64,000 nt of DNA from NCBI GenBank assembly GCA_031413715.1, contig JANOFO010000011.1, positions 18,903 to 82,902 of the forward strand, in the 5' to 3' direction. A program made the translations under genes and the position numbers. A model generated the notes under the pieces. It did not search any database, had not been told where the DNA came from, and worked only from the letters and a program-made list of their open reading frames with translations. Shown piece by piece: positions 4,473-22,045 of this stretch; the stretch's first letter is position 1, and every line of letters starts with the position of its first letter. The DNA is from Minisyncoccota bacterium (GTDB lineage: Bacteria > Patescibacteriota > Minisyncoccia > Phycocordibacterales > UBA9973).

Positions 4473-4817
4473 TTATTTCTTCTTGGTATCAGTGGCTGCT
4501 TTAGCGGATTTTGCTGCAGATATTTCGGCTTCTTTCTTTTTTTCTTCTAGTTCCTTCTGCATTTTGCCTCCGTGTCTGATGAACTTGCGAGTGGGAGAGA
4601 ATTCGCCAAGTCGGTGACCCACCATGTCCTCGCTCACCAAGACTTCTATATGGGTCTTGCCGTTGTGAACTCCAAAGACGAAACCTACCATCTCAGGCGA
4701 GATTACACATGGTCGTGACCATGTTTTAATCATCCCTGTTTCAATCGGTTTCTTACCAGCTATCTTTTTGAGAAGCCGTTCATCTACATATGGTCCTTTC
4801 TTTAGTGATCTGGTCAT
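4473..4817 (-). CDS. rpsS: 30S ribosomal protein S19
   Basis: ATG at 4815-4817 gives [19 protein letters not shown], the canonical S19 N-terminus; the ORF-track start at 4838 is a GTG further upstream. Confidence 0.9.
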
Positions 4818-4855
4818 AGATAATATAAATAAGCTCACAAAGAGCTCGTTCGTCT

Positions 4856-4884
4856 ATACTAGCAAATAGAGAAATAAAGTCAAA
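4856..4884 (-). promoter_or_regulatory. Promoter candidate TTGACT-N16-TGcTAGTAT upstream of rpsS
   Basis: Minus strand TTGACTttatttctctatttgcTAGTAT; a near-identical 35-nt block sits upstream of tuf. Confidence 0.5.
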
Positions 4885-4907
4885 TAGAAGCTCTGCTTGA
4901 TTACAGA

Positions 4908-5366
4908 CTAATTTTTTAATGCAAAACTTTTTTGTAGATTTTCCAAGTCTTGAACATACTGTCTTCTCTTTTCTAGTAGTTTAGTTTTTTGTTGCTCAGT
5001 AAGTTCTCCTCCTCTGTTTTTTAGATTATTTATCTTATTTTTTAAAGAAAAGTAAATTTCTCGCGTCTCATTAATGTCGGTATCAGTTAATTCTTTCATG
5101 TTTTTTATAAAGTGCTCGATAACGACAAAAAGTTGGTTAATTGATACTTCTCTCACTTCATTTTGAAGCCCAATTTGTTCTTCATTTAAAGGTCTACTAT
5201 TAACTAACGCATCAATAAGATCTATTTCTCGTTTCAGGATTAAAATTTTTTCGTTTGAGTCATTTAATTTATCTATGAAGTCTCCTATCTGTTCTAAATT
5301 TTCTCCTTCTTTGAGGATATAGGTGTCTAGACCCTTTTTAACTTGAAAATAATTCTTTTCTTCCAT
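4908..5366 (-). CDS. Hypothetical coiled-coil protein inserted in the ribosomal cluster
   Basis: 152 aa, charged and heptad-rich, no recognizable motif. Confidence 0.6.
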   Translation of the reverse strand: MEEKNYFQVKKGLDTYILKEGENLEQIGDFIDKLNDSNEKILILKREIDLIDALVNSRPLNEEQIGLQNEVREVSINQLFVVIEHFIKNMKELTDTDINETREIYFSLKNKINNLKNRGGELTEQQKTKLLEKRRQYVQDLENLQKSFALKN

Positions 5367-5439
5367 AATGTTTTTATTTTACCATTTTTACATTAAAATC
5401 CAATTGAACATTATGCACTCATATTTTTTATTTCATCTA

Positions 5440-5841
5440 TTAATTAAATTTATAGAGCAGGAGTATTTTCGGCAGGAAAACTATAAGTCCTACGATGCCG
5501 GCCATGGCAGCAGTGATGAGAACTGCGCCTGCGGCGACATCTTTGGTATCGCGAGCATAGGGGTGATAGGTAGGGCTAGTGAGATTGATATCGATCTCGA
5601 TCGCGGTATTGATAGACTCAGCGAGGATCACAAATCCGATTGCAAATATGATGAGCACCCATTCAATGGATGAGATGTGGAGGATGAAGCCAAGATAGAT
5701 CGCAAGTAGTCCAAAGAATATATGGACCCAGGCATTGTGTGTATTTCGAATGAAGATACCAATCCCCCGCCAAGCATTTGTCGTACTTCTGAGTCGAGAG
5801 AGTATAGAGAACCGCTTTTTTTCGGATAGTCTTGTTGCCAT
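5440..5841 (-). CDS. dgkA: Diacylglycerol kinase / undecaprenol kinase family membrane protein
   Basis: Three TM segments; ...AESINTAIEIDINL... and DVAAGAVLITAAMAGIV match the prokaryotic DgkA core (E. coli NSAIE..., SAAVLIAIIVA). Confidence 0.75.
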   Translation of the reverse strand: MATRLSEKKRFSILSRLRSTTNAWRGIGIFIRNTHNAWVHIFFGLLAIYLGFILHISSIEWVLIIFAIGFVILAESINTAIEIDINLTSPTYHPYARDTKDVAAGAVLITAAMAGIVGLIVFLPKILLLYKFN

Positions 5842-5877
5842 AGTGATATTATACACCCCTCAGTCACGATGTGACAG

Positions 5878-5895
5878 CTCCCCTTCGCAGGGGAG
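5878..5895. repeat. GC-rich hairpin repeat CTCCCCTTCGCAGGGGAG
   Basis: Exact reverse complement of the copy at 6264-6283; the two copies bracket the DUF559 gene. Confidence 0.7.
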
Positions 5896-5901
5896 CAAAA
5901 T

Positions 5902-6249
5902 TCACTCAAGTTCTGATTTTATCTTCATAAGCACTCCTTCCATATTTTTATTCACTTCATTATTCCATAAACGAAGAACTTTTATCCCTACAGTCTGTAA
6001 ATAAAAATCTCTTTCTTGATCGTATTCTTTATTTTCTATATGTTGAGAGCCGTCTAATTCGATAATTAGATTTTTCTCTTTGCAATAAAAATCAGCTATA
6101 TACGGTCCAACACCTTGTTGACGTCTGAATTTAACACCAAAGTTTTTACCTTTTAAATAGAACCAGAGTTTATATTCCTCTGGTGTCATTTCTTTGCGCA
6201 ATCGTTTCCTTCGCTCAAGTAATTTTGAATAATTAAATATCTCATACAT
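5902..6249 (-). CDS. DUF559-type endonuclease-domain protein
   Basis: 115 aa; ...KGKNFGVKFRRQQGVGPYIADFYC...IIELDGSQH... typical DUF559 core. Confidence 0.75.
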   Translation of the reverse strand: MYEIFNYSKLLERRKRLRKEMTPEEYKLWFYLKGKNFGVKFRRQQGVGPYIADFYCKEKNLIIELDGSQHIENKEYDQERDFYLQTVGIKVLRLWNNEVNKNMEGVLMKIKSELE

Positions 6250-6263
6250 AGCATTTGTATTTT

Positions 6264-6283
6264 CCTCCCCTGCGAAGGGGAGG
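6264..6283. repeat. GC-rich hairpin repeat CCTCCCCTGCGAAGGGGAGG, inverted copy of 5878-5895
   Basis: Seen directly; a third related hairpin CTCCCCCTTCACAGGGGAG lies at 6342-6360. Confidence 0.7.
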
Positions 6284-6341
6284 TGCCTTTAGGCGGAGGG
6301 GTGAACCCTATTTAGTATACACCCCCTCGCCCTAGCGGGCA

Positions 6342-6360
6342 CTCCCCCTTCACAGGGGAG
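6342..6360. repeat. Third related GC-rich hairpin CTCCCCCTTCACAGGGGAG
   Basis: Same CTCCCC/GGGGAG stem as the two copies flanking the DUF559 gene. Confidence 0.6.
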
Positions 6361-6380
6361 AAGAATCCAAACCCAATACA

Positions 6381-6404
6381 AAAAATACCCTTTCGGGTAT
6401 TTTT
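6381..6404. terminator. Palindromic hairpin aaaaataccc-tttc-gggtattttt just downstream of rplB
   Basis: 10-bp stem with T/A-rich flanks on both strands. Confidence 0.5.
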
Positions 6405-6414
6405 GTTGTATATA

Positions 6415-7260
6415 TTATGCTTTTGCTTTACCGACTTTTCGGCGAGAGACGATCCACATGTTTGAGTATTTTTTCGGTGTACGAGTCTTCTGACCTTTTC
6501 CAGATGGCTTGCCCCACATAGTCTTTGCACGGCGTAGTCCTCTTCCTTGGCGGCCTTCACCTCCACCGTGCGGGTGATCAACTGGATTCATGGCTGTACC
6601 GCGAACAGTTGGGCGGATGCCCTTCCATCGTGAACGTCCTGCTTTACCAAAGTTCTGAAGTTTGTATTCTGAGTTTGAAACTTCACCGATAGATGCATAG
6701 CAGTTCTCGGAAATCTTTCTTACTTCTGTTGATGGCATCTTTATATTCGTGTATCCGTTATCATTTGCCACTACCTGAGCAAATGTTCCTGCTCCGCGCG
6801 CAAGCTTGGCACCATTGCCTGGTTTAATTTCTACATTGTAAACAAATGTACCGATAGGAATGAGTTTAAGCGGAAGACGGTTGCCAGTAGTTAGCGGAGC
6901 TTTTTCGCCAACAGTAAATGTGTCCCCTACTTTCATAGATTTTGGCACAATAACATAGCGTTTCTCACCATCAGCATAAACTACGAGAGAAATAAATGCA
7001 TTGCGGTTTGGATCGTATTCTATTGAAGAAATCTTGGCTGGAATATCGCGCTTGTTGTACATGAAATCTATATCGCGATAAAGACGCTTGTGTCCACCAC
7101 CTTTGTGGCGAGTTGTTATACGGCCTTGATTGTTGCGACCGACAGATCTCTTGAAGCCTTTTGTAAGCGATTTCTCTGGCTTGCTCGTAGTCAAAACATT
7201 GCGGTATGACACAGTCGTTTGATGTCTCTTTGATGGTGTTGTAGGTTTATATGTTTTCAT
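6415..7260 (-). CDS. rplB: 50S ribosomal protein L2
   Basis: 281 aa; ...GRNNQGRITTRHKGGGHKRLYR..., MNPVDHPHGGGEG canonical L2. Confidence 0.95.
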   Translation of the reverse strand: MKTYKPTTPSKRHQTTVSYRNVLTTSKPEKSLTKGFKRSVGRNNQGRITTRHKGGGHKRLYRDIDFMYNKRDIPAKISSIEYDPNRNAFISLVVYADGEKRYVIVPKSMKVGDTFTVGEKAPLTTGNRLPLKLIPIGTFVYNVEIKPGNGAKLARGAGTFAQVVANDNGYTNIKMPSTEVRKISENCYASIGEVSNSEYKLQNFGKAGRSRWKGIRPTVRGTAMNPVDHPHGGGEGRQGRGLRRAKTMWGKPSGKGQKTRTPKKYSNMWIVSRRKVGKAKA

Positions 7261-9438: not shown

Positions 9439-10638
9439 TTATTTAATGATCTTTGTTACGACACCAGCGCCTACGGTCTTGCCACCTTCACGGATTGCGA
9501 AGTGCATAGACTCTTCGAGAGCAACCGGAGTAACAAGTTTGACTGAAAGTTTGACTGTATCACCTGGCATAACCATTTCGACTCCAGTAGGAAGTGTAGA
9601 TTCGCCAGTTACGTCTGTTGTACGTATGTAGAACTGAGGCTTGTATCCAGTAAAGAATGGAGTGTGGCGACCACCTTCCTCCTTTTTCAATATGTATACT
9701 TCACATTCAAATTCTGAATGAGGAGTAACTGTACCTGGCTTTGCAAGAACCTGACCGCGAGTGATGTCTTCTTTCTTGATACCACGGATTAGTATTCCAG
9801 CATTGTCGCCAGCCATACCTTCTTTCAAATTCTTGTTGAACATTTCAATGCCAGTGACTGTAGTCTTTGCAGTGTCCTTGATACCGACGATTTCTACATC
9901 CTCACCAACCTTGACGATTCCGCGTTCAATTTTACCTGTAACGACAGTACCGCGGCCTTCGATTGAGAAAATGTCCTCGATCGGCATAAGGAATGGCTTG
10001 ACGATGTCACGCTCTGGAACAGGGATGTATGTATCGAGTGCGTTTGCGAGTTCAAGTACTTTCATTGCCCATTCATCTGTATTGTCTTTTGCTTCAAGAG
10101 CTTTGAGACCTGAACCACGGATAACTGGAGCATTTGCGCCATCAAAGCCTTGTTTTGTAAGGAGTTCTCGGATTTCTTCTTCGACTAGATCAATCATGTC
10201 TTTATCATCAACCATGTCGCACTTGTTCAGAAATACGATGATTTTTGGTACACCCACTTGCTTAGCAAGGAGGACGTGTTCACGAGTCTGAGGCATCGCG
10301 CCATCAGTTGCAGCAACGACAAGTACCGCGCCGTCCATCTGAGCAGCACCTGTAATCATGTTCTTTATATAGTCCGCGTGACCTGGAGCGTCGATGTGCG
10401 CATAGTGACGAGCTGGAGTCCAGTATTCGTTGTGAGAAAGAGCGATCGTGATACCACGAGCTTTTTCTTCAGGAGCTGAGTCGATTTGATCTACGCCTTT
10501 AATTTTCGCACCGTATCCTTCACCTTGACGTGAGAGGACTTGGAGGATTGCCGCTGTAAGTGTAGTTTTTCCATGGTCAACGTGACCAATAGTTCCCACA
10601 TTTACGTGTGGCTTATCTCTGTTAAATTCTTCTGCCAT
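9439..10638 (-). CDS. tuf: Elongation factor Tu
   Basis: Start at ATG 10636-10638: [27 protein letters not shown]...; full GTPase and domains II/III. Confidence 0.95.
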
Positions 10639-10760
10639 ATATTTTATTGGTTGAGAGCGATAACGGAGCTTTTTTTGATGCTCTATTACAACTGCCAACA
10701 TAAATTAATAATAAATTAAAGGTGCTCCAACAAAAGTCAGAGTAAATCCCAATGACTCTC

Positions 10761-10841: not shown

Positions 10842-11894
10842 TTATACTTCTATTTCTTTTATCTTCACATCTTTCTCACTATCATCAAGAGGATCATACG
10901 TAGCGTTATTGTCTGGGTCTTTATCGCTGTGACATCCTGGGTCTTGAGTATCTTTTAATTCATCTTCAACATCATTATTATCAACATCATCACTACACTC
11001 TGGATCATCTCCGCCTCCACCACCTAGAGGTTCAGAACAGGATGCAGTGGTACCACCACCAGAACCAACACAACTCCATGTCCATGGGCCAGATCCTGCA
11101 TTATTTGCAGATGATCCTGCATTACAATTAAAGTGTGTAGAAGCACAGATACCATTGACGACAGTAACGGCGCAGACACTTCCATTCCACCAACTGCCCG
11201 ATGCACATATTGCGGTTGCTGTTTTACTACTCAACACTGTTGCCCCATCTTTGAGATTAAATACGGTGGATGGATTAGCAACCCACACTTGAAGAGGGGT
11301 AGCTTTATTGGCAAGTGTGGAAAGGACGCTACTAGTGTTTGCATCTACAAGTTGCGGATTTGTTGCACCAGTTGTATTCCATGTCGCGCCTGTAACCGTA
11401 CAAGTACTTGCGCCGATTGATATCGTACACGTATTCGGCGATACAGTAAGTGAACCAGAAGAAGATGAACCTCCTTCATCAGTTACAACGATGTCTACTG
11501 CATCAAATGCAGAACCTCCCTGATTATCACTTGCACTAAAACGCACTGTATATGTTCCTGGGACCGTCATTCCTGTGATACTTGTTGTAGATGCATTCGG
11601 AGAGGATATAATGGGTGTTACGGGACCAGTCCTGAAATACCAAAGCTGACTCGCGATCGTGCCGTCTGGGTCCGTTGCAGTACCAGTAAGTGTGACAGAA
11701 CTCGTAGGCAGTGTTATCGCTTGGTCAGGACCGGCATTTACTATTGGAGGAAGATTAGGAACTTCAACAGTATACGGGATAGAATAATCGTATTGAGTCC
11801 AACCGGCAGATGTGAGTTTTGGAGAAATCAAGATCGCTAGTACGAAAACAAATCCTAAGGTAATATATTTTTTATTTTTTGAGATTTTTTTCAT
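10842..11894 (-). CDS. Secreted/surface protein with PKD/Ig-like repeat and Cys-rich, acidic C-terminus
   Basis: Signal peptide MKKISKNKKYITLGFVFVLAILISP; NAGPDQAITLPTSSVTLTGTATDPDG PKD-like motif; 14 Cys in the C-terminal third; poly-D/E tail. Confidence 0.7.
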   Translation of the reverse strand: MKKISKNKKYITLGFVFVLAILISPKLTSAGWTQYDYSIPYTVEVPNLPPIVNAGPDQAITLPTSSVTLTGTATDPDGTIASQLWYFRTGPVTPIISSPNASTTSITGMTVPGTYTVRFSASDNQGGSAFDAVDIVVTDEGGSSSSGSLTVSPNTCTISIGASTCTVTGATWNTTGATNPQLVDANTSSVLSTLANKATPLQVWVANPSTVFNLKDGATVLSSKTATAICASGSWWNGSVCAVTVVNGICASTHFNCNAGSSANNAGSGPWTWSCVGSGGGTTASCSEPLGGGGGDDPECSDDVDNNDVEDELKDTQDPGCHSDKDPDNNATYDPLDDSEKDVKIKEIEV

Positions 11895-11898
11895 ATAT

Positions 11899-14229
11899 TT
11901 AGTTACATTTTTTCAAACTATTTGTAGAACAATACATCCCACCTCCAATAGTACATGTACCCGGGAGAGTAGTCGGATTACCCGAACATGTAAGTGCACA
12001 AACTCCTGTGTCACCCCCAAGTACAGGCTGTCCGTACGCAGGATTTTGTATATCGTCGTAGACACAAGGCTGCGTCTCCCCACAAGCAGGGAGAGAACCT
12101 CCACATTGCTGTTTGTTGTGAACAAGATAATCGTCGGCATAGTATGTATGATCGCCATCGAGAATGAAGTTATACAGATCGGTATTTTCTTTTGCTTCAT
12201 AACTAGCATCGACGGACTCAAGTTTTACAACCCCTTCCGATGTGATAAGTGTGTCTCCAACTGCGAGTTCTGTAACTTCAATACCAATATTTTCTTTTTC
12301 AGTTTTCTTTGGATCGATAGACTTCCATCCATCCATCGTTTTGAATGGGTGCTCTGCAGTTACGAAGTGTTTGCCCCCATTGAATGAATAGAGTGCTCCT
12401 CCTTCTAGCTTTGGTCTATGAAATGCAAGAACCGTATTGTTGCTAGTCTCTCCTTTCAATACATCTCCAATTTTGATGTCTTGAATATTTTTCTTTGTTC
12501 CATTAGCAAGCGTCACAAGCGTGTCGGCGATAAAACAATGGGCATAGTATCCAGGATCACCGCCAGGTGGTGTATCAAGAATAACAATGTCATTTTCAAA
12601 GACGCCAGTTGAGAAATCGACGAGGTATGAACCAGGGGTAGAAGGGGCACCAGGGTTAACAAATGCGTCATATACAGTTAGAATTGTGTCTCCTCCTCCA
12701 ATAGTTTGATCTGGAATTAATGTAAGTGTTGAATTTCCTGTTGTAGTTGCTTTTAGGTTAACCAGATTAGAATAAGTTGCGTTTGATACCATTGATGCTG
12801 AGACAGTTATTGGAGTCCCTGGTAAATAATTTGAACTATCTGTAGTTACTGTAGATAGTAAATCCCCGGTAGCACCAGCTGGGTATGTGGTAGCACTTAC
12901 TTTGTGAGCTGGTAACGCTCCTCCTAGCACTGTGAGTATAAAGAATAATACCCCAAGATGGACAGAGTTACCTTTTTTCTTTTTCATCATATATATTGCA
13001 ATGATTATAAGTACAATAACGAGAATTAGCGTAGCACGTGAGTTAAGTGGTTTTGATCCAGAAGATTGAACGCTTTTAAATGCAAAGTCTTTCTGATCAA
13101 GCACAGTCCCTAGACTATCGGCAAGTGCAAGAGAGACTTGCGGGTTGCGACAGAGCCCAGTCACTAAAATAGGAACGTCGGTCACTGGCCGGCTAGGGTC
13201 TTTGGTGATAACCTGGTTGAAAGTTTCACCGCATGACATACCATTTCCATTACTCAAATGTGCAGAGAGGGAGATGACAGCCTTTTCTGGGGATATTGCA
13301 TGAACATCGGTTCTCAAGAACTGATCTCCGAATTTTGTCCATATGAGTGAAAGATGCGCGGTATCGCCTCTCTGATACAAATCTTTATCAAGAGAAAGAT
13401 TTTGGATTGTAGCGCTTGTTCCGCGGATAAAATAATGAAGATCAATCGGATTGGAATTAACTTGCTCACTTGTAAGCGCTACCTTTAGGTCATAGAGCTG
13501 AGGGATTGTTCCCTTTGGCAATAGTATTGAAAAATTTTCGCTCTTTGATGCGACAAATGAAATAGAGCTCGCGTCGCCTCCTGTAGATGGAGCAATGTCT
13601 CCATAAGTAGATCGATATCTTGTTTCAAACGATGGGGTAAGAGAGAGGGCATTATTTGTATGGTTAATTGTATTACATGTGAGGCGAAGGGTTTCATCTG
13701 GTGAAATATCTACACCTTGTAAAAGTCCATAATGTTTGTTGCTCTTTTCGCCTTCAACTTTCAAATAACATGAACTGGTAACTACTTCAAAACCTTTTAT
13801 CGTGGAGTTGAGTGTGACCTTACCTGTGAATGCGACACTGAACGGAAATCCATTCTTGTTATTACTTACCAAGAATAAATTATAGGTGCCATTTAATTCC
13901 TTAGGCGCGGTATAAGTGATTTCCTTGGGGATACTGCTATGTTCTTGCAGGGTAAGTGACTCATCATACGCTTTCTCATCAACGATAGCGTTCCCCGATA
14001 TAAGCTGGACTCCGTATTTGACCCCAGTCTGCTGTCCTTCACGATTTGTGAGATCAAACGAGATATCAAAAACGTTATCCTTCTGAGAAATAATTTTTGC
14101 ATGTTGAATATCTACTGTGGCAATAGGAGTACTTGGTGAGGTAGTACTAGCCGCAAAAGCATTCTGTGAGAAAAAGGCTGAGGAAAAAACGAAAGCGCTG
14201 AAAATTAAAAACGTAGAGATATTCTTCAT
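11899..14229 (-). CDS. Large secreted/membrane protein with C-terminal Hint (pretoxin-HINT / bacterial intein-like) domain and 71-aa Cys-rich tail
   Basis: N-terminal signal peptide; internal TM (aa 399-413) followed by a signal-peptide-like segment (MMKKKKGNSVHLGVLFFILTVLGGALPAHKVSA); Hint blocks CFIADTLVTLANG (aa 565), VTAEHP, and ...DGDHTYYADDYLVHN (aa 705); tail with 8 Cys. Confidence 0.75.
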   Translation of the reverse strand: MKNISTFLIFSAFVFSSAFFSQNAFAASTTSPSTPIATVDIQHAKIISQKDNVFDISFDLTNREGQQTGVKYGVQLISGNAIVDEKAYDESLTLQEHSSIPKEITYTAPKELNGTYNLFLVSNNKNGFPFSVAFTGKVTLNSTIKGFEVVTSSCYLKVEGEKSNKHYGLLQGVDISPDETLRLTCNTINHTNNALSLTPSFETRYRSTYGDIAPSTGGDASSISFVASKSENFSILLPKGTIPQLYDLKVALTSEQVNSNPIDLHYFIRGTSATIQNLSLDKDLYQRGDTAHLSLIWTKFGDQFLRTDVHAISPEKAVISLSAHLSNGNGMSCGETFNQVITKDPSRPVTDVPILVTGLCRNPQVSLALADSLGTVLDQKDFAFKSVQSSGSKPLNSRATLILVIVLIIIAIYMMKKKKGNSVHLGVLFFILTVLGGALPAHKVSATTYPAGATGDLLSTVTTDSSNYLPGTPITVSASMVSNATYSNLVNLKATTTGNSTLTLIPDQTIGGGDTILTVYDAFVNPGAPSTPGSYLVDFSTGVFENDIVILDTPPGGDPGYYAHCFIADTLVTLANGTKKNIQDIKIGDVLKGETSNNTVLAFHRPKLEGGALYSFNGGKHFVTAEHPFKTMDGWKSIDPKKTEKENIGIEVTELAVGDTLITSEGVVKLESVDASYEAKENTDLYNFILDGDHTYYADDYLVHNKQQCGGSLPACGETQPCVYDDIQNPAYGQPVLGGDTGVCALTCSGNPTTLPGTCTIGGGMYCSTNSLKKCN

Positions 14230-14365: not shown

Positions 14366-15097
14366 CTAATTACTGACACGGATAAACTCCTGTGTATGGA
14401 TAACCATAAGATAAGGAGGGTTTAACGCTGGTTTTTGCATATGCCTCTTAAATCCACTTTCGTTAATCCAGTCCATAATCCAGTCGTCTCCCGCAATCAA
14501 ATGTACGTTTGAGGTCCACTCATTGGCTAAGGAGTACTTAGCTCGGTATTCAAAACCAGTTCCATTGTATAAAGATACATACACAGAATCATTGGTCTTA
14601 AAACGTAAAGTGTCCTTGTTAAGGGGGGCCGGAAATACCTGTGTAGAATCAACAATCTGTGTTGTGTAACTCGACATTGTAAACCGGCCTGTTTGGCATA
14701 GCCCTGTTCTGGGCGGTGAAAAGGCATAAACTACGACAGATTTTTCAAGGTAACCCCCGGTACTGTTTTTTGCATAGATTTTAATCTCCAATTCTGGCTG
14801 TTGCAGGTTTTCGGTCTGGACTATCAGCACCCCATTTGAGAACGTATAGGGCCGATTAGACCAGATGGAATCAACATCCGCTACTATAGTAGCAGTAACA
14901 TTTCCGCTTCCTGCGAACCAAAAAGTTGGTGGCACAGTAACGGTAAAGTTTGGTGTTTTCACCACTGGTTTTGGGTCAGGCTCTCCTCCTCCAGGAGGCT
15001 TGGGTAATGATTTGTTGTCGGGTGTGCAGCTGTTGAAAGTCAACAGCGCAATAAAGACAAAAGCTGTAGCCAAAAGGCTGTTGAAATTCTTTTTCAT
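14366..15097 (-). CDS. Putative lipoprotein / secreted protein
   Basis: MKKNFNSLLATAFVFIALLTFNSC signal peptide with Cys at end of h-region; no recognizable domain. Confidence 0.6.
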   Translation of the reverse strand: MKKNFNSLLATAFVFIALLTFNSCTPDNKSLPKPPGGGEPDPKPVVKTPNFTVTVPPTFWFAGSGNVTATIVADVDSIWSNRPYTFSNGVLIVQTENLQQPELEIKIYAKNSTGGYLEKSVVVYAFSPPRTGLCQTGRFTMSSYTTQIVDSTQVFPAPLNKDTLRFKTNDSVYVSLYNGTGFEYRAKYSLANEWTSNVHLIAGDDWIMDWINESGFKRHMQKPALNPPYLMVIHTQEFIRVSN

Positions 15098-15385: not shown

Positions 15386-15901
15386 TTAATGATTCCTCAA
15401 TTTTCCATAAAGAAGTGTAAGTAAAATCTTTTCATCATCAACCAAAATTAAACCATTATCTCTTATCTTCTTAAATAGTTTGGTGTCTAATTTTCGACTC
15501 TGAAAGAAAAGATTCATGATAGTCCGCTCATCATCCTCAGCTGATATACGGTTTATATTTAACTTTCCGCATTTTTGACAATCATGAATAATCATAACCT
15601 CACCACCATCTTTCTTTAAAGAAATACCTAATGGCTTCATAGAAGCATGACATTCTGACTTACGATCTCCCGGACTGACATCAACATGAAGAGAATATAA
15701 ACAGTATGGGCAATGGTTACGATGCTTAGTAGAAGTTGAATCCGACGGAATCTCTCTTCTGCAATGTTTACAGCGGAAACTTTCTGCTCGTAGCTGTAAT
15801 ATCATCTTTTTACCCATCTTTGAAATTTTCTTTGGATCTTTTTTTATTAAGGACGAGTCGTCATCAAAAGTCTTTTTTTTACTGAATTTTTGATATCCCA
15901 T
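15386..15901 (-). CDS. RNHCP-domain zinc-ribbon protein
   Basis: Literal RNHCP motif in KHRNHCPYCLYSLHVD plus CKHCRRE and HDCQKCGK Cys pairs. Confidence 0.7.
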   Translation of the reverse strand: MGYQKFSKKKTFDDDSSLIKKDPKKISKMGKKMILQLRAESFRCKHCRREIPSDSTSTKHRNHCPYCLYSLHVDVSPGDRKSECHASMKPLGISLKKDGGEVMIIHDCQKCGKLNINRISAEDDERTIMNLFFQSRKLDTKLFKKIRDNGLILVDDEKILLTLLYGKLRNH

Positions 15902-15994
15902 GATCTTATATTTTGTTGTATTGTACTACAATTCTTGTATAAGTCAAATTGACATATGTTGAAAATTATTTTATAGTAAATAAAAATAATTAAC

Positions 15995-16849
15995 ATGAAA
16001 ATAGAAATACTTGGCAGTGGCGGTTCAATCGTAACTCCGCGCCCAGGGTGTTATTGCGAGTCTTGCGTTAAAGCACGGACGTATGGTGCACCTTTCGTCA
16101 GAACAGGACCTTCAGTTTTCATTCATGATTATTCAATCTTGATAGATACGCCAGAAGATATCAGTGTTCAGTTGAATCGTTCTAAAATAGATACCATTGA
16201 CCATTGTTTATATTCGCACTGGCATGGCGATCATGTTTTAGGAAGAAGGATCTGGTACACACTTAATTATGATTTTGTAAACAAGAATCCCGTTCACAGA
16301 AAAACTATTGTTCATTTAACAGAAACTGAAGAGATTGATTTTCGAAACCACCTTGGACATCTCGACCATTTCAAAAAACTTGAGAATGAAGAGCTTATTC
16401 AGCTTTCTATCGAAAAGAATAATAAGCCTTTCTTTATCGAAGATTTGAAAATACAGCCCTATCCTCTGGCAGACAAGAGTGTTTTTGCTTTCTTATTTAA
16501 AGAAGGAGGTAAACAGATAGGTATCGCTATGGATGATTTATACAGATGGAAGCCGTCTGTCGCTTTTAATAACTTAGATCTATTAATCTTGCCAATTGGA
16601 ATCTTTGATTCGCACCCTATGACTGGAAAGCAATTGATGGATCCTGAGCATCACCTTCTAAAAGGCGAACTTACATTTAAAAGCACCTTGGCTTTACTTA
16701 AAAAGTTAAATCCTAAGCGAGTTGTGTTCATGCACATAGAAGAACATGATCAGATCAGTTTTGAGTCTTTAGGGTGTATTGGGAAAAAATTCAGTTCTAA
16801 GAGATGCCAAATTCTTTGTTCTTATGACGGAATGACAATAACAATCTGA
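15995..16849 (+). CDS. MBL-fold metallo-hydrolase (PhnP/PqqB-like subgroup)
   Basis: N-terminal ILGSGGS...PGCYCESC Cys cluster and SHWHGDH metal-binding motif. Confidence 0.7.
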   Translation: MKIEILGSGGSIVTPRPGCYCESCVKARTYGAPFVRTGPSVFIHDYSILIDTPEDISVQLNRSKIDTIDHCLYSHWHGDHVLGRRIWYTLNYDFVNKNPVHRKTIVHLTETEEIDFRNHLGHLDHFKKLENEELIQLSIEKNNKPFFIEDLKIQPYPLADKSVFAFLFKEGGKQIGIAMDDLYRWKPSVAFNNLDLLILPIGIFDSHPMTGKQLMDPEHHLLKGELTFKSTLALLKKLNPKRVVFMHIEEHDQISFESLGCIGKKFSSKRCQILCSYDGMTITI

Positions 16850-16877
16850 GTATGAAATCTTAAACAGGAGGGACTAA

Positions 16878-17888
16878 ATGTCCCTTTTTTGCTATAATTT
16901 TAGAATGAAGAAACGAATATATCCTGAATTACCTGGTTATTTAGGTCCAATCATATCTATATTTCCACAAGAGGTAAAAACAATGAAGCGCTTCTCATCA
17001 GGGATTATAAATGAATCCTATTTGATAACATTCACTGATAAAAGCCAAAAAGTATTAAGAATATATGCTCTGGGAAGAAAACTGGCAGAAGCAGTTCGGG
17101 AGATAAAGATTATGGAGAAACTGCGCAAAAAAGGTATCCCTATTCCAGAAATTTATACTATAAAAAGCAAAAAATACTTATTCTTTACAGACAAGAACTC
17201 AAAAAAAAGAATTGCATTGGTTATGGAGTTTGTGCCTGGTTCTGAACTAAAGTCATCAGACCATATTCTGATCGCAAGCTGTGCAAGGACTCAAGCAAAG
17301 ATGCATACTTTGCTTTTAAAAAAACGACCCTCTTTAAAAGAAGGCATACAGAGCACTACAAAGATTAAGAGGTGGATGGACAAAGAAATTACCGCTGCAT
17401 TAAGCAATACCAATCTTGAAAAAGGGATCAGGAAAGAAATATCAGAACGATATCAAAATATCAGAAGAGAATGGAATAAAAATCAGGATGTCTTTCTTAA
17501 AATTCCTTTTGGAGTCGTACATTTTGACTACGACAGCAGTAACATATTAATAAAGGATAATACTATCAGGGGTATAATTGATTTTGATGATATCACTGAA
17601 GCACCACTTGCAGTCGATCTTGGATTCTCACTTTGGTGGTGGATTTTTTTCAATCTCAAGAAAAACAGCTCAGAAATTGCAAAGAGTTACATAAAATCTT
17701 ATTCGTATACAAGAAGATTAACTCAACAAGAGATAGATCTACTCCCTCTTATTATAAGAGTGAGAAATATGATTTTATTATGTCTTCTTTTTATCAACAA
17801 CTCACCAAAGAAGATCCAGAGAAATAAAATCAATCAAGCACTTAGATTGGACGAACTACTTATTAATAAGCCTGCATATCTAAAATAA
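16878..17888 (+). CDS. Phosphotransferase-fold kinase (APH / choline-ethanolamine kinase family)
   Basis: VVHFDYDSSNILIKDNTIRGIIDFDDI matches the H-x-D-x4-N catalytic loop and IDFxD Mg site of APH/ChoK-like kinases. Confidence 0.65.
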   Translation: MSLFCYNFRMKKRIYPELPGYLGPIISIFPQEVKTMKRFSSGIINESYLITFTDKSQKVLRIYALGRKLAEAVREIKIMEKLRKKGIPIPEIYTIKSKKYLFFTDKNSKKRIALVMEFVPGSELKSSDHILIASCARTQAKMHTLLLKKRPSLKEGIQSTTKIKRWMDKEITAALSNTNLEKGIRKEISERYQNIRREWNKNQDVFLKIPFGVVHFDYDSSNILIKDNTIRGIIDFDDITEAPLAVDLGFSLWWWIFFNLKKNSSEIAKSYIKSYSYTRRLTQQEIDLLPLIIRVRNMILLCLLFINNSPKKIQRNKINQALRLDELLINKPAYLK

Positions 17889-17889
17889 A

Positions 17890-19047
17890 ATGAAACAAAT
17901 AAAGTACATTCCTTTTCACAAACCGACAATACCGAAAGAAGTTATAAAATCAATAACGGACTCCTTGGATTCTGGTTGGATAACTACCGGGCCGAAAGTG
18001 AAGCAATTCGAAAATGAACTCTCGACAATAATAGGGAAAAAAGATATCGTTGCAACTTCTTCTTGCACTGCTGCACTCCATACGGCATATGCGATGCTTA
18101 ATCTCCATAAAGGAGATGAAGTTATAGTGCCCAGCTTTACTTTTTGCTCAACGATAAATATGCTCGTTAACCTTGGTGTGGCTGCCGTTTTTGCTGATAT
18201 CAATGAAAACTCCTACTGTATAGATCCTAAAGATATCGAACATCGTATAACAAAAAAGACAAAAGCGATTGTTGTTGTTCATTATGCTGGTATGCCGGCA
18301 GATATGTCTTACATCAATAAAATCGCAAAGAAGCATAAGCTTTTTGTTATAGAAGATGCGGCTCATGCATTTTCTACTATTTATAAAGGACGCCCTATTG
18401 GAGCAGGTAAAAATATTACATGCTTCAGTTTCTATGCTACAAAAAACTTTACCACTGCCGAAGGTGGAGCTCTCGTATGTCAAAACAAAAAACAAGAGAA
18501 TCAAGCTCGTTTATTTATAAATCATGGTATCTCAAAAAATGCCACCACAAGATATACCCAAGGAGGAACATACAAGTATGATGTAATCTTCCCAGGGTAT
18601 AAATATAATCTGTCTGACATTCATGCATCAATTGGACTCTGTCAGCTTCCTTATAAAGGAATATTCCAACAAAAGAGATTAAGAGTTGTGAAAAAATATA
18701 GAAAGGGTCTGGGAATAAACAAAGATTTGATTCTTCCGATTGATCCTCCGTATAAAGATTCAGTGCATGCATGGCACTTGTTTACCATAGAGGTTCTTTC
18801 GACTTCAAAATGTACAAGGGATGAATTATTCTCTTTCCTTATGAGTAACAAGGTGGGTGCCAGTGTGCATTATATTCCTAACCATTTACAGTCATTTTAT
18901 CGGAATCAAAAAGTAGTCTTACCGGTTACCGAGAAAATTGCCGCCCGTATTATTTCCTTACCTTTATATGAATCGCTGAAGGATGAGGATATAAATCGAA
19001 TTATTAAATTAGTAAATTATGCTACGAAATATGGAATCAAGCAATAA
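17890..19047 (+). CDS. DegT/DnrJ/EryC1/StrS-family PLP-dependent sugar aminotransferase
   Basis: 385 aa; YIPFHKPTIPKEVIKSITDSLDSGWITTGPKVKQFE N-terminus; SFYATKNFTTAEGGALV PLP-lysine region. Confidence 0.85.
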   Translation: MKQIKYIPFHKPTIPKEVIKSITDSLDSGWITTGPKVKQFENELSTIIGKKDIVATSSCTAALHTAYAMLNLHKGDEVIVPSFTFCSTINMLVNLGVAAVFADINENSYCIDPKDIEHRITKKTKAIVVVHYAGMPADMSYINKIAKKHKLFVIEDAAHAFSTIYKGRPIGAGKNITCFSFYATKNFTTAEGGALVCQNKKQENQARLFINHGISKNATTRYTQGGTYKYDVIFPGYKYNLSDIHASIGLCQLPYKGIFQQKRLRVVKKYRKGLGINKDLILPIDPPYKDSVHAWHLFTIEVLSTSKCTRDELFSFLMSNKVGASVHYIPNHLQSFYRNQKVVLPVTEKIAARIISLPLYESLKDEDINRIIKLVNYATKYGIKQ

Positions 19048-19948
19048 GAAGATTGTAATCACAGGGGTTTCAGGATTTATTGGCAAGAATCTAGCAAAGC
19101 ATCTCAAACTTAGAGGTTATGAGATAATAGGGATAGACATTGCAGGTACGGGCGAGAGCTGTAGTACATTTTATCTAGGTAGTTTTAATGATGAGAGTAT
19201 CACTAGTATCGCCTTAAAAGAGGCTCATGCCGTATTTCATTTAGGAGCTATTGTAGGTGTTGATAGATGTCAGGATAATCCAGATTTAGTAAGACAAGTA
19301 AATTTTACACAAACGGTATTATTTTTAGACAGATGCGTAGAGCTAGGGATAAAAAAACTGATATTTTCTTCCTCATCTGAAGTATATGGTAACTCTAAAG
19401 ATCTCCCGTACAGAGAAGATACCGCTGTTTCTCCTATTTCTTTATATGCAAAATGCAAAAGAGATACTGAAATACACCTAGAAGTCTTGTCAAAATCTAG
19501 AGGTATGCAAGTATGTATTCCACGCTTCTTTAACGTATATGGACCTGGCCAAAGGTCCGACTTTGTAGTAACAAAATTCATCAATCTGGTAAAGACTAAT
19601 AAAAATATTGAAATATACGGGAATGGCCTTCAGACAAGAAGTCATACATTCATTGACGATGTGGTCAATGCTTTAGAAAAAATGATTACTTACAATGAAA
19701 CCCCATATGAAATTTTCAATGTAGGAAGTACTTTCGAATATACAATGAATGATGTAGCGAAAATAATCTTAGAATTTTTCCCCGATTCAAAATCAGAGGT
19801 TTTACATGTGGAGTATGGTTCAAATGGAACACGTGATATCTCTCTTGAAATTGACAGGAGAGTTCCCTCCATTCAAAAGACAGAAAATAAATTTTCTTTT
19901 AAAGCAAAAATTGATTTAAAAGAAGGAATTCAAAAGATGATTAGATAA
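19031..19948 (+). CDS. NAD-dependent epimerase/dehydratase (SDR family, UDP-sugar 4-epimerase-like)
   Basis: KIVITGVSGFIGKNL Rossmann motif; YAKCK catalytic YxxxK. Confidence 0.8.
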   Translation: MESSNKKIVITGVSGFIGKNLAKHLKLRGYEIIGIDIAGTGESCSTFYLGSFNDESITSIALKEAHAVFHLGAIVGVDRCQDNPDLVRQVNFTQTVLFLDRCVELGIKKLIFSSSSEVYGNSKDLPYREDTAVSPISLYAKCKRDTEIHLEVLSKSRGMQVCIPRFFNVYGPGQRSDFVVTKFINLVKTNKNIEIYGNGLQTRSHTFIDDVVNALEKMITYNETPYEIFNVGSTFEYTMNDVAKIILEFFPDSKSEVLHVEYGSNGTRDISLEIDRRVPSIQKTENKFSFKAKIDLKEGIQKMIR

Positions 19949-19960
19949 AAAAGTAAATAT

Positions 19961-22045
19961 ATGGAGAATGACTACAGATATATACCCATAAAAAGAGGTT
20001 TAATTACTCAACTTTATCCTTGGAACTTCTGGTACATTGATTTTTTGACACTTTTTCCTTTTCTATATATTAATAAATCTAAAAAAGACAAAATCCTCCA
20101 AGATTTAAAATATTTTTATCACACTGACAATATCTTTTTTCTTGATTCTGGTAAAAGTGCTCTCGTTACCTCAATGAAAGCTCTAGGTATAAAGGAAGGA
20201 AATGAAGTATACATCCAATCTTTTGTGTGTACTGATGTTGTGGATGCAATAATAATGACAGGAGCTCAACCTGTATTGATAGATTGTACTGATAACTTAT
20301 TGATTAATGCTAGTGATTTCGAGAAAAAAATTACTAGCAAAGGAAAATGTCTAGTGATTACAAATACTTATGGCTACGTTGAAAAAAGCGAGATATACCA
20401 AATAGCACGTAAGTATAATTTAAAAGTTATAGATGATTGTGCACAATTAGCAGAAATTAAGAAAGATTTCTCGACACAGAAAAAAGCTGATTTCTCAGTA
20501 TACAGCGTCGGCACTCAAAAACTATTCGCTACTACAGGAGGAGGAATTATAACTACAAATCAAAAAGAGCTTGCCGAGAGTGTCAATTTTACGATGCCGA
20601 ATCAGATTATTTCATATACTTCGCTTGTACGTAAATTGATATTGCGCTTAAGCTATTCATTTAAATTCTTATTACTACGGATCCAGGATTATATCAAGAT
20701 AAAAGTAATACATATCGCAAAAGAAAAAACGCCTTACGATCATCAAGATCCAGAATCTATACGGCCAAAAAAAATGAATATCCGAACGATATACTCCTTA
20801 TACTTGAAAAGTGTACGAAGTAATTCTCACCGCGACAAAACCAGACAAAACATTAAAACTCTAAATGATTATCTTAAGAAATTTGAGTGGATAAAACTAC
20901 CTCAAAGGGAGCATAATGATACTGTCCTATATTACACGATAACTGTTGCTAATGAAATCAGATACAAGCTTGGCGAATATCTAAGTAAGTACGGATTCCA
21001 ATCAACATGGAATTACATGCCGGTAAATTGGTATATGGCATATAAGAAGTATAGAGGTGAAACACCTAATTCTTTTTATCTATCGGGGAAAGTGCTTTCC
21101 CTTCCATTTAGAGATTTGTCAGACTTAAATATAAAAGAGATGATTTCTGTAATAGATAAATTTGAAAAGACAATCCTAAATTCAAAAGAGATAAAAGAAT
21201 TAACCATTAAGGACTGGTACTCAAGAACAGTAGGTTTATCAGGATATACATTTTTTTCTTCTATGGAATGGGTTTCTCTCACTGCAGAAATATTCAATCT
21301 TACCAATCATTTCCTTGTTATATCAGATAGTGGGGCTCTTATTTACACTATCGTCCAAGTTGATAAAAACGGTTTAGGTTATTCAACTTTTATTGGATAT
21401 GGAGGATTAATTACCGACAATATTATTTCTGATACTTTGACCAAGCGGATTTATCGCCTGATTGAGGATTATTTGCGGTTAAAGATAATTAGAATAAAGG
21501 ACTCTCCATTTATAGAAAAAACATCATGTGATGCAAATACAAAAAATACATCTGCAATAAAAATAGATACGGGATACGTACCTAATAAGAATATTAGGTA
21601 CTTCCTAAAAAAAGTAAATTATAATGTAGTCAGTATAAGAAAACTGGAGAGTAATGAGATTGATTCAATGTATGATTTATATCTAGATACCTCACTGCGC
21701 GTAAAAAGTGCTTACACAACACCAAAAGAGCTTTTTAAGTCTATGTTTACAATGAAAGACGTTTACATCCTTGGAGGATTTGATGAGAAGCAGAAACTTC
21801 ATGCCGCAAGCATTTTTATGTACGATAATCAGACGATGTATTATTGGTGGAATATGTCAGATGATATTGCCAAGAAAGAATACTATAATTATGCACTCAT
21901 ATATCATGCTATCGAACTAGCTGTTCAACAAAAACTAAATTGGTTTGACATGGCAACTTCACATTCTGAAACTTTAAAAGTATTTAAAAAATCTTGGGGA
22001 GCTATTGATGTACCGTTTCTTAGTCTTGAGGCCGAGGAGAAATAA
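19961..22045 (+). CDS. Fusion protein: DegT-like aminotransferase-fold N-domain plus FemAB/GNAT-like acyltransferase-like C-domain
   Basis: N-terminal 230 aa resemble DegT (SVYSVGTQKLFATTGGGIITT with conserved Lys); C-terminal ~250 aa (…YYWWNMSDD…YNYALIYHAIELAVQQKLNWFDMATS…) resemble FemAB/BioF2-like GNAT fold; middle ~170 aa unassigned. Confidence 0.5.
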   Translation: MENDYRYIPIKRGLITQLYPWNFWYIDFLTLFPFLYINKSKKDKILQDLKYFYHTDNIFFLDSGKSALVTSMKALGIKEGNEVYIQSFVCTDVVDAIIMTGAQPVLIDCTDNLLINASDFEKKITSKGKCLVITNTYGYVEKSEIYQIARKYNLKVIDDCAQLAEIKKDFSTQKKADFSVYSVGTQKLFATTGGGIITTNQKELAESVNFTMPNQIISYTSLVRKLILRLSYSFKFLLLRIQDYIKIKVIHIAKEKTPYDHQDPESIRPKKMNIRTIYSLYLKSVRSNSHRDKTRQNIKTLNDYLKKFEWIKLPQREHNDTVLYYTITVANEIRYKLGEYLSKYGFQSTWNYMPVNWYMAYKKYRGETPNSFYLSGKVLSLPFRDLSDLNIKEMISVIDKFEKTILNSKEIKELTIKDWYSRTVGLSGYTFFSSMEWVSLTAEIFNLTNHFLVISDSGALIYTIVQVDKNGLGYSTFIGYGGLITDNIISDTLTKRIYRLIEDYLRLKIIRIKDSPFIEKTSCDANTKNTSAIKIDTGYVPNKNIRYFLKKVNYNVVSIRKLESNEIDSMYDLYLDTSLRVKSAYTTPKELFKSMFTMKDVYILGGFDEKQKLHAASIFMYDNQTMYYWWNMSDDIAKKEYYNYALIYHAIELAVQQKLNWFDMATSHSETLKVFKKSWGAIDVPFLSLEAEEK

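Follow-up and report, generated by a model that had tools for sequence, protein, structure and literature searches.

What does a Hint domain do near the end of a secreted protein, directly in front of a short cysteine-rich tail? The question is raised by an open reading frame (ORF) of a Minisyncoccota bacterium, located in a 64,000-nucleotide stretch of contig JANOFO010000011.1 (assembly GCA_031413715.1, positions 18,903 to 82,902) that we call the window. The ORF lies on the minus strand at 11899..14229, starts with ATG and encodes 776 amino acids (aa) plus a stop codon; both NCBI and an independent Logan assembly contain the identical protein (P0001). An initial annotation described a single secreted protein whose Hint domain would release the tail as a delivered effector or bacteriocin-like peptide, in an organism of the candidate phyla radiation (CPR) type. 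All the sequence features it listed for the ORF, the motifs and the tail are found where it had placed them, and the CPR assignment agrees with the Patescibacteria-like names of homologs and related loci. The taxon labels of relatives used below are those on the records of metagenome-assembled genomes (MAGs).

We find that the 776-aa ORF is a natural fusion of two adjacent cell-surface genes, A and B, and that its C-terminal domain is a Hint of the bacterial intein-like (BIL) kind. The reading we favour, with confidence somewhat above even, is that this Hint performs an extracellular autoprocessing of the type A BIL kind on the A-B fusion surface protein, detaching (or re-ligating) the tail.

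A Hint domain of the bacterial intein-like kind

The Hint domain covers aa 565-705 (141 aa; 12115..12537, minus strand). Block A, CFIADTLVTLANG, begins at Cys565, block B (VTAEHP) contains Thr624 and His627, and block G, ...YNFILDGDHTYYADDYLVHN (...YLVHN), brings the domain to its end at Asn705. The three hallmarks that had been annotated, an N-terminal nucleophile, a TxxH block and a terminal HN, are all in place as Cys565, Thr624-Ala-Glu-His627 and His704-Asn705. The +1 residue is Lys706 and not a Cys, Ser or Thr nucleophile, and a homing endonuclease is not present within the 141 aa. Type A BILs are defined by a C-terminal His-Asn without a +1 nucleophile (PMC4031507). The Hint described here has every sequence feature of this published definition, and conservation of the residues concerned suggests that it is autocatalytic.

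Among Pfam models, PF14623 (Vint) gives a borderline match, with 27.2 bits for the whole protein (cut-off 27) and 29.4 bits for the B part, over the N-terminal half of the domain only. Hom_end_hint, Hint, AXH and PT-HINT match below threshold. For PT-HINT (PF07591) the score is 13.8 bits against a cut-off of 27.7 (E 0.07) and concerns aa 650-699 only. Thus, of the initial label "pretoxin-HINT / bacterial intein-like", the second half stands on the type A BIL features and the first does not. A Pfam scan of 72 relatives matched Vint in 49, Hom_end_hint in 48, AXH in 46, PT-HINT in 23, Hint in 15 and Hint_2 in 11 of them; the 23 for PT-HINT are all that match at E <= 1e-3, and Hom_end_hint reaches E 2.7e-14. 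Relatives spread over six Hint-clan models in this way form a distinct subfamily without its own model. NCBI labels some of them "Hint domain-containing protein".

Searched with phmmer against PDB sequences, the whole Hint aligns to the Tetrahymena BUBL BIL2 domain (E 2.8e-5), and a family profile raises this match to E 3.7e-7. Weaker matches are an intein C-terminal domain protein, the gp41-1 and DnaB inteins and a Clostridium thermocellum BIL. An AlphaFold model of aa 447-776, based on 72 sequences, has a predicted local distance difference test score (pLDDT) of 84-98 across the Hint, and Foldseek matches the modelled Hint to BIL2 at E 2.3e-9 (TM-score 0.78-0.80) and also to mini-inteins. 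The initial annotation had named a missing profile hit and a missing beta-fold as signs against a Hint; we find a Vint profile match and a Hint beta-fold in the model.

An invariant lysine behind His-Asn

Cys1, T-x-E-H-P and V-H-N hardly vary among about 80 retrieved proteins, and in an 18-sequence alignment over several phyla C1, T60, H63, H140, N141 and K142 are invariant columns. We counted distinct ...TY[YF]A...HN junctions in proteins and GTDB loci: 108 out of 111 (97%) have a Lys at +1. What comes after His-Asn-Lys varies. A Cys-rich tail follows at 57 junctions, a Gly/acidic linker at 16, another Hint at 5 and other sequence at 22, while at 8 the protein stops after at most two residues. 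Relatives that share the Hint are unrelated in their flanks: the N-flanks fall into at least three unrelated types and the C-flanks into more than six kinds.

Scanning one genome per GTDB species gave 137 Hint relatives. GTDB matches that reach into the tail come only from Patescibacteria MAGs (labelled Paceibacteria, Nomurabacteria and "Saccharibacteria"). The bare Hint is found in Bacteroidota, Alpha- and Gammaproteobacteria, Bdellovibrionales, Chloroflexota, Peribacteria and DPANN archaea, and the His-Asn-Lys rule spans Patescibacteria, Bacteroidota, Proteobacteria, Chloroflexota and DPANN archaea. The occurrence of the Hint in DPANN archaea and other CPR lineages suggests module exchange between ultra-small, host-dependent organisms. 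Within Patescibacteria, the cassette of Hint and tail is joined to at least three unrelated N-domains and thereby behaves as a mobile C-terminal module. No second copy of either the Hint or the tail is present in the 64-kb window.

In Mucilaginibacter angelicae (L033, 4681-6870), a surface protein whose length exceeds 3,616 aa carries five tandem His-Asn-Lys Hints, placed head to tail with K-G-G-x-S linkers as the only spacers. Negadavirga, Olivibacter and an alphaproteobacterial MAG (L039, L054, L055) have the Hint twice in tandem. Another arrangement is seen in seven proteins (P0113, P0114, P0116, P0121, P0124, P0129, P0132), in which a signal-peptide-like N-flank of about 47-70 aa precedes the Hint and a long acidic tail rich in Gly, Ser and Asp follows it, ending in the conserved motif GPDLS..EE..AI.NGW[QK]; GTDB loci similar to these (L036-L085) are for the most part proteobacterial. 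The Hint itself has close relatives, at 46-61% identity, in a Woesearchaeota MAG (L041), an archaeon MAG (L046) and Peribacteria (L031).

Two surface genes in one ORF

The hydropathy profile of the 776-aa protein has three hydrophobic segments, one N-terminal, one at aa 399-415 and one at aa 425-439. The initial annotation took a transmembrane (TM) helix plus a second signal-peptide-like segment as traits of one secreted protein. We find that they mark the seam between two genes that are separate in relatives. Most homologs retrieved with the whole protein extend over just its first 50-70%, and many split A homologs, of about 440 aa, terminate 10-23 aa past the TM/Lys-Arg anchor. A search with the C-terminal third alone retrieves mainly stand-alone proteins of about 350-390 aa that have their own signal peptide. 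For example, in the related locus L002, a stop codon and 5 nt lie between A (4685-5995) and a B gene that bears the Hint (6001-7104, P0081). In L004, a 283-aa B with the same Ig-like N-domain and no Hint begins 11 nt after A. A and B form a single ORF in the window, in L006 (a 786-aa ortholog) and in L025. Among 50 A-family proteins, 32 are fused to B and 18 are split, with a stop after the TM anchor.

Module A corresponds to aa 1-419 and module B to aa ~414-776, with a signal peptide of its own. Since A and B are separate in relatives, the TM segment is the anchor of A and the second segment is the retained signal peptide of B. In alignments this signal peptide (aa 416-446) corresponds to the genuine N-terminal signal peptides that B proteins have when they stand alone (P0081, P0135 and the 283-aa gene of L004). 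Fused homologs retain the n/h/c layout, the small-x-small end and a following D/N/T-T/S-Y/F; small-x-small after the second hydrophobic segment was found by regular expression in 23 of the 32 and by eye in most others. The conserved A-x-A site suggests that signal peptidase still separates A from B, and the Lys-rich loop is expected to be cytoplasmic, which would place both ectodomains outside the cell. An in-frame ATG-ATG at aa 414-415 (window 12985-12990) could serve as an internal start for separate translation of B. No Shine-Dalgarno sequence lies upstream of it; the annotated start of the ORF and the B start of L002 likewise have none.

From the N-terminus, module A begins with a signal peptide at aa 1-26 (14152..14229, minus strand; MKNISTFLIFSAFVFSSAFFSQNAFA, with predicted cleavage before AST). 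The annotated N-terminal signal peptide is borne out by an h-region with a Kyte-Doolittle maximum of 2.26 over 11 aa followed by AFA and a further Ala, and homologs have the same n/h/c layout with an A-x-A end. The ectodomain of A (aa 27-398, 13036..14151, minus strand) contains Cys154, Cys185, Cys333 and Cys360, two of them in motifs that recur among the displayed homologs; the four would be compatible with extracellular disulfide formation. Module A has 50 homologs, with E down to 0, no Pfam match and no PDB sequence match at E <= 1. Its TM anchor (aa 399-415, ATLILVIVLIIIAIYMM; 12985..13035, minus strand) has a Kyte-Doolittle value of 3.1 over 17 aa and is followed by KKKK at aa 416-419. 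The retained signal peptide of B (aa 416-446; 12892..12984, minus strand) consists of KKKKGNSVH, LGVLFFILTVLGGAL and PAHKVSA, with the predicted cut before T. It is followed by the B-N domain, an Ig-like beta-sandwich (aa 447-546; 12592..12891, minus strand), which is common to B genes with different heads. A flexible linker (aa 547-564, ...ILDTPPGGDPGYYAH; 12538..12591, minus strand), with pLDDT < 50 at model residues 101-115, leads to the Hint. Its last residue, His564, is the -1 residue of the N-terminal scissile bond, a position not conserved in relatives.

A Cys-rich tail that accompanies the Hint

The tail directly after His-Asn comprises 71 aa with eight Cys, as had been annotated. It runs from Lys706 to aa 776 (11902..12114, minus strand), the range 11899-12114 given earlier including the stop codon. 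Its Cys spacing is C-6-C-5-C-21-C-3-C-10-C-7-C-7-C, with one residue after the last Cys. Its composition is Gly/Thr/Pro-rich with a net charge of -1, and it probably holds four disulfides. In 15 aligned tails with eight or nine Cys, Lys1, eight Cys and one Gly (G37) are invariant, and identity to the tail of the 776-aa protein is only 22-32%. When 11 proteins with such tails, the 776-aa protein included, are compared in pairs, their Hints share a median identity of 68% and their tails one of 35%, a divergence of the tail at about double the pace of the Hint.

Relatives have tails with 6, 8, 9, 11, 13 or 15 Cys, and those with 11 to 15 are longer and contain added modules. An additional conserved module, GPYEG..C..F....C..GW.THGC.W, whose sole Pfam match (DUF7949) is sub-threshold, is seen in 13- and 15-Cys tails (P0055, P0058, P0060, P0064, P0067, P0080, P0088 and others). 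We also considered a redox switch between Cys1 and a tail Cys, based on Cys parity, and rejected it, as both even and odd Cys counts occur in tails.

A tail profile run against 1.84 billion representative proteins gave 11 matches at E <= 1e-3, 10 of them directly behind this Hint. This result makes the tail detectable only as a partner of the Hint. The eleventh match, P0134, was discarded as a low-complexity repeat protein. Neither the 8-Cys tail nor the tail of a 13-Cys relative matches any Pfam family at E <= 10, and the tail of a 15-Cys relative matches only DUF7949, below threshold (E 0.038). The initial annotation had allowed that the tail might instead be a common cell-wall-binding domain; there is no such Pfam match.

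A surface locus with exchangeable heads

The gene order around the fusion is conserved: a protein of about 241 aa, A, B, a PKD protein, EF-Tu, S10 and L3. The PKD gene (window 10842-11894, minus strand) starts 4 nt past the stop of the fusion ORF and encodes a 350-aa secreted protein (PF22352, E 1.8e-16). It is also found downstream of B genes that have no Hint (L004, L005). Heads found at the B position are TSP1 (repeats), ASH/Ig, Cys repeats, unknown domains, and Hint plus tail, and in the 32 A-B fusions the regions past the Ig-like B-N domain are completely different. The locus therefore behaves like a constant anchor with exchangeable heads. The tail is a Patescibacteria-specific partner of the Hint and one of several fast-evolving alternative heads of B. 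Such a head in a conserved surface locus makes a surface, adhesion or structural role likelier than a toxin role.

The Cys motif of the PKD neighbour, C.S.H..C...W.W.C.G.GGG...SC, recurs in the variable head of an A-B fusion (P0011, BLASTP E 4e-8), and modules seem to be shuffled among the genes of the surface locus. The acidic C-terminus of the same neighbour (...DDVDNNDVED...KIKEIEV) is similar to that of a syntenic 401-aa gene in L004. Overall, the context looks like a modular surface/adhesion system and not a toxin-immunity pair.

On the other side of the fusion ORF, window 14366-15097 (minus strand) encodes a 243-aa protein whose N-terminus looks like that of a lipoprotein (…LLTFNSC) and which falls into no Pfam family. 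It shares 25% identity over 126 aa with the gene of about 241 aa at the same position in L002 (pairwise E 7e-7) and, on this similarity, probably belongs to the conserved surface locus as its fourth member. Further upstream, L002, L004 and L006 have NusA, pyrophosphatase and trigger factor, and window 15386-22045 has an RNHCP-domain gene and sugar-modification genes (DegT aminotransferases, an epimerase and an APH-like kinase). The differing upstream flank points to local rearrangement. In addition, the listed EF-Tu ORF (window 9439-10701, minus strand, 420 aa) has 21 surplus residues at its N-terminus; related loci use a conserved start that maps to window 10638.

Probable autoprocessing outside the cell

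How would such a protein work? The identity of the domains, the catalytic residues, the fusion and the exclusive pairing of the tail with the Hint are shown above; export, signal-peptidase cleavage, disulfide formation, autoprocessing with its products and the role of the tail are inferred. Both modules would be exported by Sec, and signal peptidase would probably cut after Ala26 and Ala446 (VSA446). In the fusion, the signal peptide of B would form a second membrane-spanning segment that is probably still cleaved, and the cut after Ala446 would free an extracellular product consisting of the Ig-like domain, the linker, the Hint and the Cys-rich tail. The Hint would fold outside the cell and process itself without ATP or a cofactor. 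Attack of Cys565 on the His564-Cys565 peptide bond would give a thioester, and cyclisation of Asn705 to a succinimide would break the Asn705-Lys706 bond. The 71-aa tail would come off the Hint and the Ig-like domain would be freed; as a minor or alternative outcome, ligation would join the Ig-like domain to the Lys706 amine.

In tested type A BILs cleavage products dominate, and ligation of the flanks through the freed amine is possible (PMC4031507). Because cleavage products dominate in the characterised cases, detachment of the tail with release of the Ig-like domain is the most likely outcome here, and tail release through Asn cyclisation is plausible.

A structurally known type A BIL for comparison is PDB 2LWY from Clostridium thermocellum. 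It and the Hint studied here are both endonuclease-free Hints of about 140 aa with an N-terminal Cys, T-x-x-H, His-Asn and no +1 nucleophile, and type A BILs are likewise sited in variable secreted or surface proteins, not at conserved housekeeping sites. Similarity to 2LWY is weak (E 1.2e-3 with a single sequence, 4.5e-5 with a profile) and limited to the C-terminal part. The Hint studied here differs in its invariant +1 Lys and, in Patescibacteria, its obligate Cys-rich C-flank, neither of which was found in the literature searched. It also does not reach PT-HINT, the Pfam model built on such domains. Type A BILs were reportedly described by Amitai et al. 2003 and Dassa et al. 2004.

Several points weigh against the type A reading. 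Eight relatives end within two residues past His-Asn-Lys and still keep the Asn and the Lys. Such tail-less proteins are not accounted for by a simple release of the C-flank and suggest that the junction residues serve another step. The model of the tail has low confidence, with pLDDT 47-70 in context and 59.4 alone. The search of 1.84 billion representative proteins yielded no tail without a Hint, at a sensitivity that is limited for short, divergent Cys-rich sequences, so that Hint-less copies may have escaped it. Topology and signal peptides were judged by hydropathy (Kyte-Doolittle) and motif inspection alone, and the proposed autoprocessing, its products and the disulfides are drawn from residue conservation and from other BILs.

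Alternative explanations

The strongest rival is a lysine-directed ligation, in which the Cys565 thioester is resolved by an amine of Lys706, either its epsilon-amine or the alpha-amine that Asn cyclisation would free. Outside the cell and free of ATP, the Ig-like domain would end up covalently on the Cys-rich tail, or on some other surface protein through one of its lysines. In BIL2 of Tetrahymena thermophila, the epsilon-amine of a lysine resolves the thioester, and the N-flank is conjugated to targets (PMC8616854). This chemistry, together with alpha-amine ligation by type A BILs (PMC4031507), makes lysine-directed ligation a serious rival. Further points in its favour are the Lys behind His-Asn in 108 of 111 junctions, whether a tail, an acidic linker, another Hint or a stop comes next, and a tail never found without the Hint.

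Nonetheless, the parallel with BUBL1 BIL2 (PDB 6TMM, 6Y75) is incomplete. The two domains share the W-K-S motif after block B, the C-terminal His-Asn and the lack of a +1 nucleophile, but identity is only 23-24%. BIL2 is eukaryotic and cytoplasmic with ubiquitin-like flanks, whereas the protein described here is an exported bacterial one with Ig-like and Cys-rich flanks. BIL2 conjugates its upstream ubiquitin-like domain to lysines, while lysine chemistry is only a candidate here. Moreover, the nucleophilic Lys of BIL2 lies within the downstream ubiquitin-like domain and not at +1, its junction being followed by Met-Gln. Cleavage products prevail in the type A BILs tested, only one residue would be added in members that end at His-Asn-Lys, and no structural support places Lys706 close to Cys565. 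On balance we regard lysine-directed ligation as possible, though unlikely. A broader version is rather unlikely in our view: the His-Asn-Lys Hint would be an extracellular, ATP-independent ligase that covalently assembles the surface apparatus of an ultra-small episymbiont, with the tail as acceptor module. The accepting amine would then be that of Lys706 or would come from a lysine in a partner protein such as module A or the PKD protein, in a bacterial counterpart of BUBL BIL2 conjugation.

We next consider the toxin reading of the initial annotation, in which a pretoxin Hint of a polymorphic-toxin-like protein frees the Cys-rich peptide as an effector or bacteriocin. The protein is secreted, its intact His-Asn makes C-terminal release chemically plausible, and its tail evolves faster than its Hint. 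The conserved junction followed by polymorphic C-termini is the sole feature of polymorphic toxins seen here. PT-HINT domains (PF07591; CdiA, MafB and Rhs-type proteins) likewise stand just before the variable C-terminal region of a secreted protein, and cleavage at their C-terminal end is predicted, as it is here. Some relatives of the Hint touch the model weakly (23 of 72 at E <= 1e-3), but the Hint itself, at 13.8 of the required 27.7 bits, remains below the gathering threshold. It also occurs without a C-flank and in tandem arrays, unlike PT-HINT, and since relatives with the same Hint end 1-4 residues past His-Asn-Lys, a cargo is not intrinsic to the module.

The neighbourhood does not resemble that of a toxin either. 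In loci for contact-dependent inhibition (CDI), PT-HINT precedes the toxin domain and an immunity ORF of 72-156 aa lies a few nucleotides downstream (PMC4725963). The downstream immunity-like small ORF that had been proposed was not found: the next gene is that of the 350-aa PKD protein, and 22 other Patescibacteria loci also show none at that place, their immediate same-strand downstream gene, where present, having a signal-peptide start and encoding either a PKD protein or a paralog of the carrier N-domain. Genes for EF-Tu and ribosomal proteins adjoin the locus, whose other modules are of the adhesin type. The tail, which is Gly/Thr/Pro-rich and at a net charge of -1 not cationic, gives no match at E <= 10 to families of toxins, knottins or bacteriocins. 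The best Foldseek (PDB) match of the tail-only model is a spider toxin (E 2.7, 29 columns), which is not significant, and the low confidence of the model makes this fold comparison uninformative. We thus find no positive evidence for a delivered effector or bacteriocin and consider this reading quite unlikely.

In a transfer of the Hedgehog kind only the N-terminal junction would matter: a non-protein acceptor such as a lipid or cell-wall precursor would attack the thioester and anchor the Ig-like domain, with the tail as an adduct-recognition region. As in Hedgehog/Hog (PDB 1AT0), an exported protein would have its N-domain processed through a Cys thioester, and the segment of about 70 aa directly behind the Hint resembles the sterol-recognition region. 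The strict tie of tail to Hint fits, and tail-less relatives make the N-terminal reaction the common denominator. Hedgehog-type Hints, however, are not known to have a terminal His-Asn, and their acceptor is a sterol. His-Asn never varies in the subfamily described here, and if active the Asn would cut off the tail, which is hydrophilic and Cys-rich and not hydrophobic and helical. This transfer is accordingly very unlikely.

Finally, we give almost no weight to two further ideas, a degenerate Hint that has lost catalysis and is only structural, or a canonical intein splicing its host protein: the Hint fold by itself fits both, but all catalytic positions are conserved across phyla, and a canonical intein is excluded by the +1 Lys, the unrelated flanks, the lack of a homing endonuclease and the failure of the tail-profile search to find any host in which N-domain and tail are joined without a Hint.

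Implications

Hint domains of the BIL type were recognised two decades ago, and their purpose in most bacterial proteins is still puzzling. Our search of the literature found no relevant report on Hint or intein-like domains in CPR/Patescibacteria. Within the literature searched, four aspects appear to be undescribed: the invariant His-Asn-Lys subfamily, its obligate Cys-rich partner in Patescibacteria, the use of a Hint as an exchangeable head of a surface locus, and an A-B fusion with an internal signal peptide. The last of these means that two secreted proteins can share one ORF with an internal signal peptide, which is relevant to annotation and topology prediction.

The protein offers a compact and tractable BIL case, namely an exported protein of about 330 aa with intact catalytic residues and a short, strictly co-occurring C-flank. 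If the Lys is the acceptor, the subfamily would represent a widespread energy-free route to extracellular covalent links and a potential protein-ligation tool. For CPR biology, the case reveals a modular surface locus, adjacent to genes for EF-Tu and ribosomal proteins, with an anchor, an adaptor of the Ig-like type and heads that can be exchanged; it could mediate attachment to the host cell.

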